From NCBI GenBank assembly GCA_963618365.1, contig CAVESN010000001.1, positions 9,892 to 50,428 on the forward strand: 40,537 bases of DNA, read 5' to 3'. Source of the stretch: Bacteroides uniformis (lineage in GTDB: Bacteria; Spirochaetota; Spirochaetia; Sphaerochaetales; Sphaerochaetaceae). A program made the translations under genes and the position numbers. Each line of letters opens with the position of its first letter. Position 1 is the stretch's first letter. The notes beneath the pieces are model-generated. The model worked only from the letters and a program-made list of their open reading frames with translations. It searched no databases and was not told the DNA's origin. Positions 18,749 through 37,895 of this stretch are shown in pieces.

Positions 18749-19089
18749 GCACGTCAAAACGGCTTTTTGATGAGCACCATCAGAAAGTCGTTTCTTTTTG
18801 CCTGTCCCCCCATTAGATATTCCCGGGGCACTCATAAGACTCCAGCACTCTCCTCATCCTTCTCCGACTTACTTCTTCAGAAGAAGTTCCCCTATTCTCA
18901 AAACCATGCCAGTGAGGCGGGTGTGGTTGCCATAACTGTCAAACTATCAGCACCTTGGGATTTTCATGGCATCAAATCCCATTCGCCACGAAGCCGGAAT
19001 ATTGATTAAAAGGTTGGCTTATGCAAAAAGAAAAGAGCCATGAACTCAACGTCATGACTCTTTGATTGTCCGGGAGGATCCCTGCTACA

Positions 19090-19698
19090 TTAGAACCTAC
19101 GAATCGGCCGTACAAGATACTGACTATCGCGGCTTTGTGGCCCACTGTCCAAGCCATTAACTACTCTCTTTATTGCATATGCTGTATCGGTAACAGCTTC
19201 AGTGTTATAATCATAGACTTCAGAGCTTGTCCAGTAGTATGTATTTAATTCAAAAGAGTCTGCCAAGTCAGTGTTATACATAAGAGTTAAAAGCTCTTCT
19301 TTGCTTGGAAGGAACCAGTCTGTACATCCGTTTTCGTAGAGATCTTTATTATATACTTTATAGGCTGCCTCGTACTTTTCACCCATCTCGAAAAGTTTTT
19401 TAGTATTGTCAAGGCCACCTCCAATACTAGTTACAGTTTTGCAGTCTTCTGCTTCTTTCTCTCCCCAAGCGCAATTTACAGAAGCACCACCAAGATTACT
19501 TGCATAATCGGTTTTCGCAGCCTCAAGGTATGTCCATCCATCGGTTGAAGCTTTTGGGTTAACGTAGAAAATGGTTCCACCGGCAGGACCAGGGTCGCCA
19601 ACTTTGTAGGTGGTTGACTTGGTTTCGCTATCGTCGCACGATACAATGAGCATTGCAGAAAGCAATACCATCATCAGAACAGTAAGAGTTTTCTTCAT
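19090..19698 (-). CDS. DUF1566 (Lcl C-terminal-like) surface lipoprotein
   Basis: The ATG at 19698 opens MKKTLTVLMMVLLSAMLIVSC|DDSE, a canonical lipoprotein signal. The motifs GGTIFYV, DWFLPSKEELLTLMYN, YYWTSSE and VRPIRRF fit the DUF1566 pattern. The gene is visibly more AT-rich than its flanking genes. Confidence 0.8.
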   Translation of the reverse strand: MKKTLTVLMMVLLSAMLIVSCDDSETKSTTYKVGDPGPAGGTIFYVNPKASTDGWTYLEAAKTDYASNLGGASVNCAWGEKEAEDCKTVTSIGGGLDNTKKLFEMGEKYEAAYKVYNKDLYENGCTDWFLPSKEELLTLMYNTDLADSFELNTYYWTSSEVYDYNTEAVTDTAYAIKRVVNGLDSGPQSRDSQYLVRPIRRF

Positions 19699-19740
19699 GT
19701 AATCAATCCTTTGCAAGACAAAAGGTTCTTGCGAGGGGCA

Positions 19741-19770
19741 AGTATACCCCCCCCCGTGTATCTTGTGCAA
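19741..19770 (-). promoter_or_regulatory. Predicted sigma70-type promoter of the DUF1566 lipoprotein gene with a poly-G spacer
   Basis: The minus strand reads TTGCAC (19770-19765), then the 18-nt spacer aagatacacGGGGGGGGG, then TATACT (19746-19741). About 36 nt further on come AAGGA and the ATG at 19698. Confidence 0.5.
19747..19755 (-). repeat. Homopolymeric G9 tract (C9 on the + strand)
   Basis: Counted directly: four C at 19747-19750 plus five C at 19751-19755. Confidence 0.95.
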
Positions 19771-19827
19771 GAGGGGGACAATCACCGTCTCTTTTTCTTT
19801 TGGGGAGGAAAGGGATATGATGGCACC

Positions 19828-21162
19828 ATGCAACAAGATTTAACCATCGGTTCCATCAAGAAGAATTTGATAACATTCTCCCTTCCCTACCTTGCTTCCT
19901 GTTTTCTGCAATCGTTCTATGGCATGGCAGACCTCTTCATCACGGGAAAGTTCAACGGCGCGGAAGTCATCAGCGCTGTTGCCATCGGCAGCCAGCTGAT
20001 GCACATGCTGACTGTCATGATTGTCGGAATGGCAATGGGCACCACCGTGAACCTTGGCAAGGCGGTAGGGGGCGGGGACAAAGCCATGAAAGGGAAAGTA
20101 ATCGGGAACTCCGTGCTCTTCTTCCTTCTTCTCAGCATTCCCCTGACCGTGGCACTCACCCTCCTAACCGATCCGATTCTCCGGCTTCTTGCTACTCCCA
20201 TGGAGGCTTTCGAGCAAGCCCATGGCTACGTGCTGGTATGCATGCTGGGAATTCCATGGATAATCGCATACAATGTGGTGGCCTCCCTGTTCCGGGCTCA
20301 GGGGGACAGCAGGACCCCCCTTTTGTTCATCATGGTCGCAGGAATCGCCAATGTGTTCCTTGACTGGCTTTTCATCGGACCGTTGGGCATGGGCGCCACA
20401 GGGGCGGCCCTTGCCACCGTCATCAGCCAGGCGCTCAGCTTCCTCCTCTCCCTCCTCGCAATCCTCAAGAAGCACTTGCTACGCCTCAAGAGAGAGGATT
20501 TCAGGTTCGACCGCAAAATAGTCAAAGCAATCGTCGGAGTAGGCTTTCCCATTTGCGCACAGGATGGATGTATCCAGGTCTCCTTCCTCCTCATCACCGT
20601 GCTTGTCAACCATCGTGGCGTCATCGATGTGGCTGCGGTGGGCATTGTCGAGAAGATAATCAGCTTCCTCTTCCTCGTACCCTCCGCGATGCTCAGCTCG
20701 GTCAGCGTGGTTGCGGCCCAAAACGCGGGAGCGGGAAGGAACGACCGTTCCTTGCAATCGCTTTTCTGGGCAATCTCCTTCTGCCTGACCTTCGGATTCG
20801 TGGTCTCCCTTCTGGTCCAGTTCTTTGCAAAGGAAATTATCGGGCTCTTCACAAGCGACCCCTTGGTGGTAACCCAAGGGGCCTCCTACTTTCGCTCCTA
20901 TGTGTTCGACTGCCTCTTTGCCGCATTCCATTTCCCCATGTGCGGTTTCTTTTGCGCCTACGGGAAAGCCGGATACTCTTTTCTCAGCAACATCCTCTCC
21001 ATCATCCTCGTGCGCATCCCTGGCGCCTGGTGGGGTTCCATGGCATTTCCCGCCACCTTGTTGCCACTGGGGATGGCGGCTCCGCTAGGGAGCGTCTTCT
21101 CCTCGGTCGTGTGCGCATTGCTGCTTTTGAAGCTTTGGAGGAAAGGGAAAACCAAACCATGA
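19828..21162 (+). CDS. MATE-family efflux transporter
   Basis: The N-terminus ...IKKNLITFSLPYLASCFLQSFYGMADLFITGK... and the 12-TM pattern are typical of MATE/NorM. I chose the start at ATG 19828. The upstream part of the track ORF crosses the divergent promoter region. Confidence 0.9.
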   Translation: MQQDLTIGSIKKNLITFSLPYLASCFLQSFYGMADLFITGKFNGAEVISAVAIGSQLMHMLTVMIVGMAMGTTVNLGKAVGGGDKAMKGKVIGNSVLFFLLLSIPLTVALTLLTDPILRLLATPMEAFEQAHGYVLVCMLGIPWIIAYNVVASLFRAQGDSRTPLLFIMVAGIANVFLDWLFIGPLGMGATGAALATVISQALSFLLSLLAILKKHLLRLKREDFRFDRKIVKAIVGVGFPICAQDGCIQVSFLLITVLVNHRGVIDVAAVGIVEKIISFLFLVPSAMLSSVSVVAAQNAGAGRNDRSLQSLFWAISFCLTFGFVVSLLVQFFAKEIIGLFTSDPLVVTQGASYFRSYVFDCLFAAFHFPMCGFFCAYGKAGYSFLSNILSIILVRIPGAWWGSMAFPATLLPLGMAAPLGSVFSSVVCALLLLKLWRKGKTKP

Positions 21163-36927: not shown

Positions 36928-37650
36928 TTACTCGCCAATTTTCATTTCCCCATCCCTACACTTGATGGTCACTCCTTGTATACCCAACGCGCTACCATAG
37001 CCCGAAGCTGAATTGAAATCTTCCTTTGTTCCACCATAGTGGATTGTCTTTAGACTAGCACAACCACTGAACGCACCTCTACCAATATTTTTTATGCCCT
37101 GCGGGAGATAGACAGTCGTTTTAGCCAAACCTGCAAAACCAGACGCCTTGATTTCTGTTACAGTAGCGTTTGCGTTACCTGCTGTTTTGGCAGGTATATA
37201 AAGTGTGCTGTCGCTTGATGCAGAAGAAAGCGACACAACAAGTTGATTAGTGTAACCGTCAACATAATCATACGTTAGACTGTCTGGGACAGACACCCAA
37301 ATAGCATTAAAAGTTGTGTCCTCTGTTATTGTTTCAGTGAAATCAAACGCTTTGCTACTTTCTGCTTTTCCCCACCCGATGAATGCGTAATCATTCCGAG
37401 TCGGATCTTCCGCAAGTCTTGTAGCCGTCTCTCCCTCATTGACAGTCTGAGAATCTAATTCGGTATCCCTATCCTTGAATATAACTGTATACGATATTGG
37501 GGAACTCGGAGTCGAGGGATTCGAGGTCGACGAACTCGAGTCGTCGCAGGCAACGAAAAGTGCCGCAATCGTGAAAACAAAAGAGATTACGCAAAGACGC
37601 TTAATCTGAGAGGGATACCCCCCCCCCGTACGGTTATTTCTGTATTCCAT
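36928..37650 (-). CDS. Surface lipoprotein with a Listeria-Bacteroides repeat (Flg_new) domain and BspA-type LRR C-terminus
   Basis: The lipobox is ALFVAC|DDSSS. YTVIFKDRD...NDYAFIGWGK...FDFTETITEDTTFNAIW matches the List-Bact repeat. IKNIGRGAFSGCASLKTIHYGGTKEDF matches the BspA-like LRR_5 ending. The start is one of ATG 37650, 37665 or 37674, all upstream of the G10 tract. The gene is AT-rich relative to the window. Confidence 0.75.
   Translation of the reverse strand: MEYRNNRTGGGYPSQIKRLCVISFVFTIAALFVACDDSSSSTSNPSTPSSPISYTVIFKDRDTELDSQTVNEGETATRLAEDPTRNDYAFIGWGKAESSKAFDFTETITEDTTFNAIWVSVPDSLTYDYVDGYTNQLVVSLSSASSDSTLYIPAKTAGNANATVTEIKASGFAGLAKTTVYLPQGIKNIGRGAFSGCASLKTIHYGGTKEDFNSASGYGSALGIQGVTIKCRDGEMKIGE
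37618..37627 (-). repeat. Homopolymeric G10 tract (C10 on the + strand) inside the lipoprotein ORF
   Basis: Counted directly: three C at 37618-37620 plus seven C at 37621-37627. The tract is read as acG GGG GGG GGG (T-G-G-G). Confidence 0.95.
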
Positions 37651-37895
37651 ATACTTCTCTTTCATACATTGCATTGGCTACAGTTGCATTTTGTTGTCCA
37701 TCCGATCTCTTTACGCCCCTACAAGGACAAGCCTCGGATATCCATCTGCTCCCTGCCCTGCACAACCAATCGATTACGTTCCTATGACCGCACCATCGCC
37801 ATGCTAGAGCAGAAAGTCTACCGGGAAATCAACAAAAACCAACTCTAGGCAAACCATTGGGGCGTGTCAAGAACGCACCCAACTCCCATCTCCTT

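Follow-up and report, generated by a model that had tools for sequence, protein, structure and literature searches.

Poly-G tracts at the 5' ends of two low-GC lipoprotein genes in a spirochaete-like genome: probable members of a genome-wide set of contingency loci

The stretch of DNA analyzed here, hereafter called the window, comprises 40,537 nucleotides (nt) of contig CAVESN010000001.1 (assembly GCA_963618365.1) and contains two genes for predicted lipoproteins, designated locus 1 and locus 2, that each have a long poly-G tract near their 5' end. We conclude that both genes are probably slipped-strand (poly-G) contingency loci and belong to a genome-wide set that controls accessory surface-lipoprotein genes of low guanine plus cytosine (GC) content, locus 1 by means of a promoter-spacer switch and locus 2 by means of a frame switch. 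An earlier note on the same DNA had proposed one shared switch-plus-signal cassette in front of two unrelated cargos, with the same kind of switch at both genes. Some of the features on which this was based are plainly visible: both tracts stand on the minus strand in the context ac-Gn-tat, and in both translations the lipobox Cys is followed by DDS (IVSC followed by DDSE in locus 1, and FVAC followed by DDSSS in locus 2). The stated distance of 50-60 nt between the tract and the hydrophobic core of the signal peptide holds for locus 1 (about 60 nt), but in locus 2 this distance is about 21 nt. Likewise, reading through the tract gives GGGY in both cases, but this is trivial because Gn is followed by TAT, and in locus 1 the frame concerned is non-coding and lies upstream of ATG 19698. 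A single mechanism for the two genes did not hold up either, since the tract is part of a promoter spacer in locus 1 and of a coding frame in locus 2.

In locus 1, a tract of nine G (G9) is placed between the two boxes of a predicted promoter, which is followed by a conserved 5' untranslated region (UTR) with a ribosome-binding site (RBS). The features of this locus are as follows.

19741..19770, minus strand: predicted sigma-70-type promoter with the -35 box TTGCAC at 19770-19765, an 18-nt spacer and the -10 box TATACT at 19746-19741 (direct reading)
19747..19755, minus strand: G9 tract, the 3' half of the promoter spacer, abutting the -10 box (direct reading)
19699..19740, minus strand: 5' UTR of cassette A (the family of 5' regions to which locus 1 belongs), with a hairpin formed by GCAAGA at 19732-19727 and TCTTGC at 19718-19713, and the RBS AAAGGA at 19712-19707
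19636..19698, minus strand: cassette A signal peptide MKKTLTVLMMVLLSAMLIVSC, then DDSE (translation)
19090..19698, minus strand: locus 1 gene for a lipoprotein of 202 amino acids with a weak Lcl_C (DUF1566) domain, GC 0.42 (open reading frame (ORF), translation and Pfam)
19032..19063, minus strand: terminator-like hairpin beyond the locus 1 stop codon (consensus match only)

The spacer reads aagatacac followed by G9, and the tract ends 48 nt before the RBS-preceded ATG. Simple counting shows that the spacer would be 17 nt long with G8, which is the canonical length, 18 nt with G9 and 19 nt with G10. In the mechanism that we favour, the G9 tract between TTGCAC and TATACT would act as a transcriptional switch or dial, because the gain or loss of one G would shift the spacer among these three lengths and thereby change the strength of the presumed promoter. 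A consensus promoter scan returned TGCACA-17-TATACT at the same place. The homologous -35 and -10 boxes are kept in the paralogues of locus 1, and in its closest homologue, which shares 72% amino acid identity and is located on ENA contig L070, they read TTGACA-18-TATAAT, with 9 nt plus G9 between the boxes. The L070 sequence also has the same UTR and signal peptide as locus 1, in very AT-rich surroundings. As for the protein itself, the Pfam match to Lcl_C (formerly DUF1566) has an E-value of 1.3e-5 and a score of 25.9 bits, which is below the cut-off of 34.9, and PF07603 is carried by homologues of the locus 1 protein.

The frame upstream of ATG 19698 is open from position 19836 through the G9 tract into the lipoprotein, so that locus 1 could also be read as a translational switch in which the real gene is a 248-codon ORF starting at TTG 19836 with the tract inside it. 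However, the 46-residue extension is not conserved, and the upstream frame differs or is closed in the paralogues. What these paralogues have in common are the DNA boxes (-35, -10, UTR hairpin and AAAGGA), then the ATG and the canonical signal peptide, and in L070 the upstream region is AT-rich with its TTGACA-18-TATAAT arrangement. We therefore regard a translational switch at locus 1 as very unlikely and treat its tract as a promoter element.

The leader of locus 1, read on the minus strand, is 42 nt long, with AAAGGA near its end and then ATG 19698; we assume that transcription starts close to the -10 box. Invariant columns are spread over this leader in the alignment of the cassette A paralogues (alignment A1). 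The hairpin at window positions 19713-19732 (minus strand) is found directly 5' of the RBS in 12 sequences with a 7-bp consensus stem (GUAAGAC ... GUCUUGC); besides the window, it is present in L002, L011, L015, L018, L021, L060, L066 and L070-L073, which include both copies from this genome and contigs of other organisms. No compensatory changes were detected among these 12 sequences, and the conservation is at the level of the sequence. The hairpin is a candidate for a role in, for example, mRNA stability or as a protein or RNA binding site. A second, terminator-like hairpin (CTTGC-ccctc-GCAAG with a T-rich tail) lies at 19728-19742 on the minus strand, where it directly follows the locus 1 -10 box. 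Its GCAAG arm is also an arm of the UTR hairpin, which allows two alternative pairings, and the paralogues do not have this second hairpin in the same form.

In locus 2 the tract consists of ten G (G10) and lies within the gene, after the start codon and ahead of the signal peptide. The features of this locus are as follows.

36928..37650, minus strand: locus 2 gene for a lipoprotein of 240 amino acids with a List_Bact repeat and a BspA-type leucine-rich repeat (LRR), GC 0.45, in frame (ON) at G10
37618..37627, minus strand: G10 tract within the ORF (nt 24-33 of the coding sequence), between start codon and signal peptide
37546..37617, minus strand: remaining part of cassette D (the 5' region of locus 2), YPSQIKR, hydrophobic core LCVISFVFTIAALFVA and lipobox Cys, then DDSSS (translation)
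37842..37870, minus strand: candidate tract-free promoter of locus 2, TTGACA-17-TAGAGT (consensus match only)

A purine-rich RBS stands before the start codon, ATG 37650, and likewise before the homologous starts of a paralogue and of the orthologues. From there the gene reads ATG, then GAA TAC AGA AAT AAC CGT AC, ten G, and TAT CCC TCT CAG ATT AAG CGT. The tract must be coding because there is no in-frame ATG, GTG or TTG between it and the lipobox Cys. When the frame was simulated for other tract lengths, full-length products resulted with G7, G10 and G13 (240 residues at G10), but G9 gave only 20 and G11 only 16 residues. The tract would accordingly constitute a translational on/off switch, in which G10 is in frame and one G more or less would end translation after 16-20 residues. 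The paralogue of locus 2 on contig C2 (C2:24765) provides a case in point. It has G8, is out of frame and reads MEFRNAYGGGAPRWLGAFA followed by a stop after 19 residues, whereas the adjacent frame encodes an intact List_Bact/LRR lipoprotein of 425 residues. This paralogue is an OFF allele for which G9 would be required to be ON. The remainder of cassette D is kept in this paralogue, and in L074 and L075 it appears as TGGGYSSQIK...FVACDDD. The Pfam scores of the locus 2 protein are 42 bits for List_Bact and 26.1 bits for LRR_5, the latter being borderline against a cut-off of 27.7.

The two tracts of the window belong to a larger set. The earlier note had called for a genome-wide scan for further loci with this architecture, and such a scan revealed roughly 20 genes with a linked tract that encode lipoproteins or other proteins with export signals. 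There are 21 runs of at least nine G or C in this genome compared to about 1.5 expected by log-linear extrapolation from shorter runs, a 14-fold excess, and only two runs of at least nine A or T. Most of the long G/C runs stand at the 5' ends of genes for exported proteins, which argues, as the earlier note did, against coincidental homopolymers: of the 21 runs of at least nine, about 16 are located just 5' of, or within the first codons of, genes whose products have lipoprotein or secretory signal peptides, and when runs of eight are included the count is about 23 of 36. Furthermore, TAnnnT directly follows the tract in 17 of these 36 runs, compared to 0.8% of the G4-6 runs and none of 40 G7 runs. 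A TTGACA-like box lies upstream of each of these 17 sites at 15-19 nt, and spacers of 15, 16, 17, 18 and 19 nt are all represented.

Among the tract-linked genes we distinguished four families of 5' cassettes, beside which single-locus tract cases are also present.

Cassette A: C1 (locus 1), C2/C86b, C62, C86a, C109 and C175; G8-G10; spacer of 16 or 18 nt; MKKTL..VLMMVLL..VSC-DD
Cassette B: five loci; G8 or G10; spacer of 15-19 nt; signal peptide MK.R.KAMLIALMAMAC.MVGC-DDGDD
Cassette C: two loci; G9 and G10; spacer of 18 nt
Cassette D: locus 2 and C2:24765; G10 and G8; tract within the coding sequence

Modular combinations of a switch and a lipoprotein signal in front of different cargos, as envisaged in the earlier note, do therefore exist, the clearest example being cassette A with its six copies. 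Neither cassette A nor cassette B occurs in the genome without a tract. In cassette A the similarity (alignment A1) covers the -35 box, spacer, tract, -10 box, UTR hairpin, RBS and signal peptide and then stops at the Cys-Asp-Asp codons. The 5' DNA of the copies is 75-88% identical, whereas their mature proteins are 41-45% identical or unrelated, and within the boxes and spacer the number of G is the main difference among the copies. The cassettes of locus 1 and locus 2 would each be conserved as a unit: cassette A as promoter, tract, UTR hairpin, RBS and signal peptide MKKTL...VSC-DD, which is kept in the six paralogous loci and also in other organisms, and cassette D as RBS, short N-terminus, tract and signal peptide ...FVAC-DD.

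The proposal that locus 1 and locus 2 carry one homologous 5' cassette, grafted onto two unrelated cargos, finds some support in the features common to both genes, namely the ac-Gn-tat context, the lipobox, the C-D-D-S sequence and the low GC. Once the tracts were left out, however, the two 5' regions reached a top local alignment score of 16 against a mean of 16.4 for shuffled sequences, and all that was left in this alignment were the eight bases TGCGACGA that correspond to the Cys-Asp-Asp codons. By comparison, locus 1 aligned with its paralogue on C62 at z = 39, and locus 2 with its paralogue on C2 at z = 26. In addition, the locus 1 tract is non-coding, unlike that of locus 2, and the cassette D paralogue has ac-G8-tgc, which means that the 'tat' is not conserved even within the family. 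Common descent of the two 5' regions from a single cassette is thus highly improbable.

Nor are the cargos simply unrelated. Those behind cassette A are Lcl_C (C1 and C62; 41% amino acid identity), List_Bact plus DUF6273 (C2b and C86a; 45%) and List_Bact alone (C175), and no similarity was detectable between the Lcl_C and List_Bact groups. Yet List_Bact and Lcl_C are joined in a single protein in homologues elsewhere, which marks the two cargos as alternative modules of one shuffled family. List_Bact cargos are found behind three cassettes (A, C and D), and this variety indicates that cassettes and cargo modules have been mixed and matched. In our model the cassettes are reused in front of the adhesin-like modules Lcl_C, List_Bact, LRR_5 and DUF6273. 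The copies of cassette A are dispersed on different contigs. Tandem repeats are absent from locus 1, and locus 2 has only a short repeat in its Ser-rich linker.

A further feature that connects the tract-linked genes is the acidic pair after the lipobox Cys. As counted with a crude detector of lipoprotein N-termini, C-D-D was present in 8 of 10 tract-linked lipoprotein-like N-termini compared to 3 of 39 others (Fisher p = 1.4e-5). Within the window these sites are located at 19627-19635 and 37537-37545. This tag may mark lipoproteins that are destined for the surface.

Comparisons with other genomes allowed us to look at the tracts from two sides. More distant homologues of locus 1 have the same UTR and signal peptide and a spacer of 16-17 nt without a tract. 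The tract thus appears to be an add-on to a pre-existing promoter, because these homologues keep the UTR, the signal peptide and an ordinary spacer. Tract-free cassette A homologues (look-ups P0005, P0007, P0008 and P0012) were identical across samples and served as a negative control. The orthologues of locus 2, in turn, are 47-49% identical, lie on contigs with 37-38% GC and have a tract at the same place, with G9 in frame and the N-terminus MKH[KR]NSTGGGYS.QIK...FVAC-DDD. In one relative (47% amino acid identity), four assemblies from different samples contain the cassette D orthologue with either G9 (L075 and L079) or G8 (L077 and L078). Their flanks are identical at 300 of 300 positions upstream and at 695-700 of 700 positions downstream, and the gene was called as 239 residues at G9 and as 197 residues from an internal start at G8. 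This G8/G9 difference is the most direct evidence for slippage, and it comes from a relative and not from the present genome, within which the variation seen (G8, G9 and G10) is that between paralogous cassette A copies. We infer that tract length varies in this organism as well, that promoter strength depends on the spacer, and that the encoded proteins are exposed at the cell surface.

Several points weigh against this interpretation. Four Logan contig runs hold the window at a depth of 2-6x, and no contig in them crosses either tract; exact-protein look-ups of the 202- and 248-residue forms of locus 1 returned no other record; and homopolymer lengths in assemblies of metagenome-assembled genomes (MAGs) from short reads may be off by one base. 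The -35 box of locus 1, TTGCAC, is imperfect, and since promoter scans yield about equal numbers of hits in shuffled sequence, our promoter call is based on conservation among the paralogues and not on the scan. Finally, a -10-like TATCCC after the tract of locus 2 is conserved (TATTCC in the orthologues), and there is a small chance that this tract, too, has a role at the DNA level. Two JGI metagenome scans, moreover, contained no match to cassette A patterns with or without a tract.

As the 2-6x runs, the protein look-ups and the JGI scans yielded no second reading of either tract, it has to be considered whether the tracts are fixed elements without a useful switching rate, namely a G-rich spacer that tunes the promoter in one case and a Gly3 linker in the pre-protein in the other. 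Such a view is also in line with the G4 that a tract-free homologue shows at the corresponding point of its spacer, where G-richness may thus be older than the tract, and with the conservation of GGG-Y at the protein level in the cassette D orthologues. It does not account for the 14-fold excess of runs of at least nine and their concentration at the 5' ends of exported-protein genes, or for the finding that samples of the relative differ over 1 kb in nothing but G8/G9. In addition, the frame is broken precisely at the tract in one paralogue (on C2) and in one methyltransferase gene, and slippage of G8-12 tracts is known from other bacteria, among them Treponema pallidum (PMC7864442). We consider fixed tracts unlikely and prefer slipped-strand contingency loci.

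That the poly-G runs are artefacts of sequencing or assembly, such as G calls of two-colour chemistry, might be suspected from the position of several tract loci near contig ends. Both tracts of the window, however, are internal to a 50-kb contig and have unique flanks, and the same tracts recur at the same cassette positions in the independent assemblies L070, L071, L074, L075 and L077-79, which stem from other samples and organisms. The repeated cassette of about 150 nt accounts for the contig breaks, as illustrated by the overlap between the ends of C2 and C86. An artefact is thus barely conceivable. The tract or cassette loci at contig ends include C2:45123-45135, C86:7990-8040, C175:18, C69:44, C39:16913 and C163:222; the C2 and C86 ends overlap with identical sequence and probably represent a single locus. 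Since assembly seems to break at the repeated cassette, there may be more copies than were counted.

The low GC content of the two genes, which the earlier note had inferred from their appearance, was confirmed against 1472 long ORFs (mean GC 0.534, standard deviation 0.029) of the 2.08-Mb genome, which is distributed over 191 contigs and has 52.8% GC. Locus 1 has a GC of 0.420 and a GC at third codon positions (GC3) of 0.374, corresponding to the 0.2 percentile, and locus 2 has a GC of 0.451 and a GC3 of 0.407, corresponding to the 1.9 and 0.6 percentiles, respectively. The same trend applies to the whole set, as 14 of 17 tract-linked genes are within the bottom 7% of GC (Mann-Whitney p = 2e-8). 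Contigs with cassettes in other organisms have 37-44% GC. In the congeners G005, G004 and G003 (L036, L037 and L038), the slot that corresponds to 18750-19826 contains genes for a 534-residue solute-binding protein and a 164-residue acetyltransferase instead of the locus 1 gene, which makes it a variable slot, and the locus 2 gene was not found in the congeners. The combination of low GC3, absence from congeners and cassette contigs of 37-44% GC would fit accessory genes that are shared with, or were acquired from, relatives of lower GC. Sites of the type GGGGGGGGTANNNT (Gn-TAnnnT) number 17 in this genome compared to 2 for the reversed-pattern control, 0 in five congeneric species and 0-4 in other family members, where some of them precede C-D-N/D lipoproteins.

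A tentative and rather doubtful extension of these findings is that the 5' cassettes of about 150 nt are self-contained, horizontally exchanged 'switch plus export' modules that circulate among host-associated spirochaete lineages of differing GC and are recombined onto new adhesin modules. Each module would then consist of a sigma-70 promoter containing the G tract, the conserved UTR hairpin and a lipoprotein signal that ends in C-D-D as an acidic surface tag. If so, a newly acquired surface domain would join the phase-variable repertoire at once, and the 17 Gn-TAnnnT sites, compared to none in the five congeners, would reflect a recent module invasion.

The organism is uncultured and host-associated and, judged by the atlas neighbours of one window protein, probably belongs to the Spirochaetota. 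No flagellin (PF00669) match was found in the genome, which is 95.5% complete, and this is consistent with a non-motile spirochaete lineage. A genome-contig scan identified only three contigs with a cassette; the MAGs that contain them are labelled Muribaculaceae, Coriobacteriaceae and 'bacterium', labels that probably reflect errors of binning. For the short cassette A contigs L071 and L072, from the Muribaculaceae and Coriobacteriaceae MAGs, mis-binning is suggested by their homology to this genome and by a canonical promoter of the TTGACA/TATAAT type.

The mechanism as such is not new, and represents a known kind of poly-G switch. In T. pallidum tp0126 and in Neisseria meningitidis porA, the tract lies in the gap that separates the -35 box from the -10 box, and expression is best with a 17-nt spacer, a design that experiments demonstrated for tp0126 (PMC7864442). 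Like these genes and like tprE/G/J and tprL of T. pallidum, locus 1 and the other promoter-type loci described here have a poly-G of at least eight in a predicted sigma-70-type promoter of a gene for a presumed outer-surface protein, and as in T. pallidum, with which this organism probably shares its phylum (Spirochaetota), there are many such tracts per genome. Unlike in these pathogens, the products are predicted lipoproteins with List_Bact, Lcl_C or LRR modules in place of Tpr or OmpW proteins, the -10 box always borders on the tract, and the organism is an apparently non-motile, host-associated MAG of the commensal type.

The Vlp (and Vsp) genes of Mycoplasma hyorhinis are paralogues with a conserved block of promoter, homopolymer and lipoprotein signal followed by divergent mature regions, and they are expressed stochastically and independently of each other. 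The present genes resemble them in this conservation of the 5' block and divergence of the mature regions. Since they are dispersed instead of forming one cluster, have a poly-G instead of a poly-A tract and encode globular modules without long tandem repeats, they are not members of the Vlp family. Intragenic poly-G contingency genes are represented by the 5' coding tracts of the Neisseria pilC/opc type and by the poly-G genes of Campylobacter jejuni. Locus 2 is comparable to these, with a 5' coding G tract at or before the signal peptide, truncation of the predicted product by a change of one G, and on/off alleles among paralogues and in the relative; phylum and protein family are different, and the likeness is one of sequence features. 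Lastly, the lipoprotein export signal (LES) of Bacteroides fragilis has the consensus SDDDD, with acidic residues after the lipid-modified Cys (PMC5080379). The tract-linked lipoproteins, almost all of which begin with C-D-D, resemble the LES of Bacteroidetes in being acidic after the Cys, but the acidic pair is at +2/+3 without a preceding polar or basic residue and the phylum is another one, so that we regard this as a resemblance only.

The present data would extend the multi-locus control of surface proteins by poly-G from pathogens (T. pallidum, Neisseria, Campylobacter and mycoplasmas) to a spirochaete-like commensal that is uncultured, host-associated and apparently non-motile, and one small genome appears to unite switches of the promoter-spacer and the coding-frame kind with a DNA methyltransferase whose frame is broken. 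The conserved cassettes are also of use in gene annotation, as the ORF lengths of gene callers follow the tract, which is evident from the forms of 248 and 202 residues for locus 1 and of 197 and 239 residues for the relative.

The frame-broken methyltransferase is encoded on the minus strand by a C5 DNA cytosine methyltransferase gene that falls into two ORFs, with the break precisely at a G10 tract (G000:C60:7201-7210; L022:548-1803). The N-terminal part has the motifs GSPCQ, ENV and QRRRR, and the C-terminal part has TPVECERLQGFP and GNSMAVPV. From its sequence, this gene is a candidate for a phase-variable methyltransferase (phasevarion) that would currently be OFF. A G8 tract is located within a gene for an N6-adenine methyltransferase-like product with an NPPY motif (G000:C71:8817-8824; L023), possibly a second phase-variable modification gene.

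Two paralogous genes with G9 and G11 encode exported proteins that are not lipoproteins (G000:C34:12171-12179, L006; G000:C55:8022-8032, L010). Their products resemble outer-membrane proteins of the beta-barrel type and end, for example, in ...LSLRYEW. The C55 tract is in an open frame reading MEKRYWGGGYPS, which recalls cassette D, and the gene is GC-rich (0.61), unlike the lipoprotein genes; a kinship of the C55 gene with cassette D was unconvincing in alignment. A different geometry was observed for G000:C7:664-671 (G8) and G000:C69:44-53 (G10), which have ...cagttttgac-Gn-aagggt in common. In these two cases the tracts abut a -35-like TTGAC and not the -10 box, unlike in the main class, and at least the C7 tract lies upstream of a lipoprotein gene (MKRLMILFGMLATLAFIGC-NDQ).

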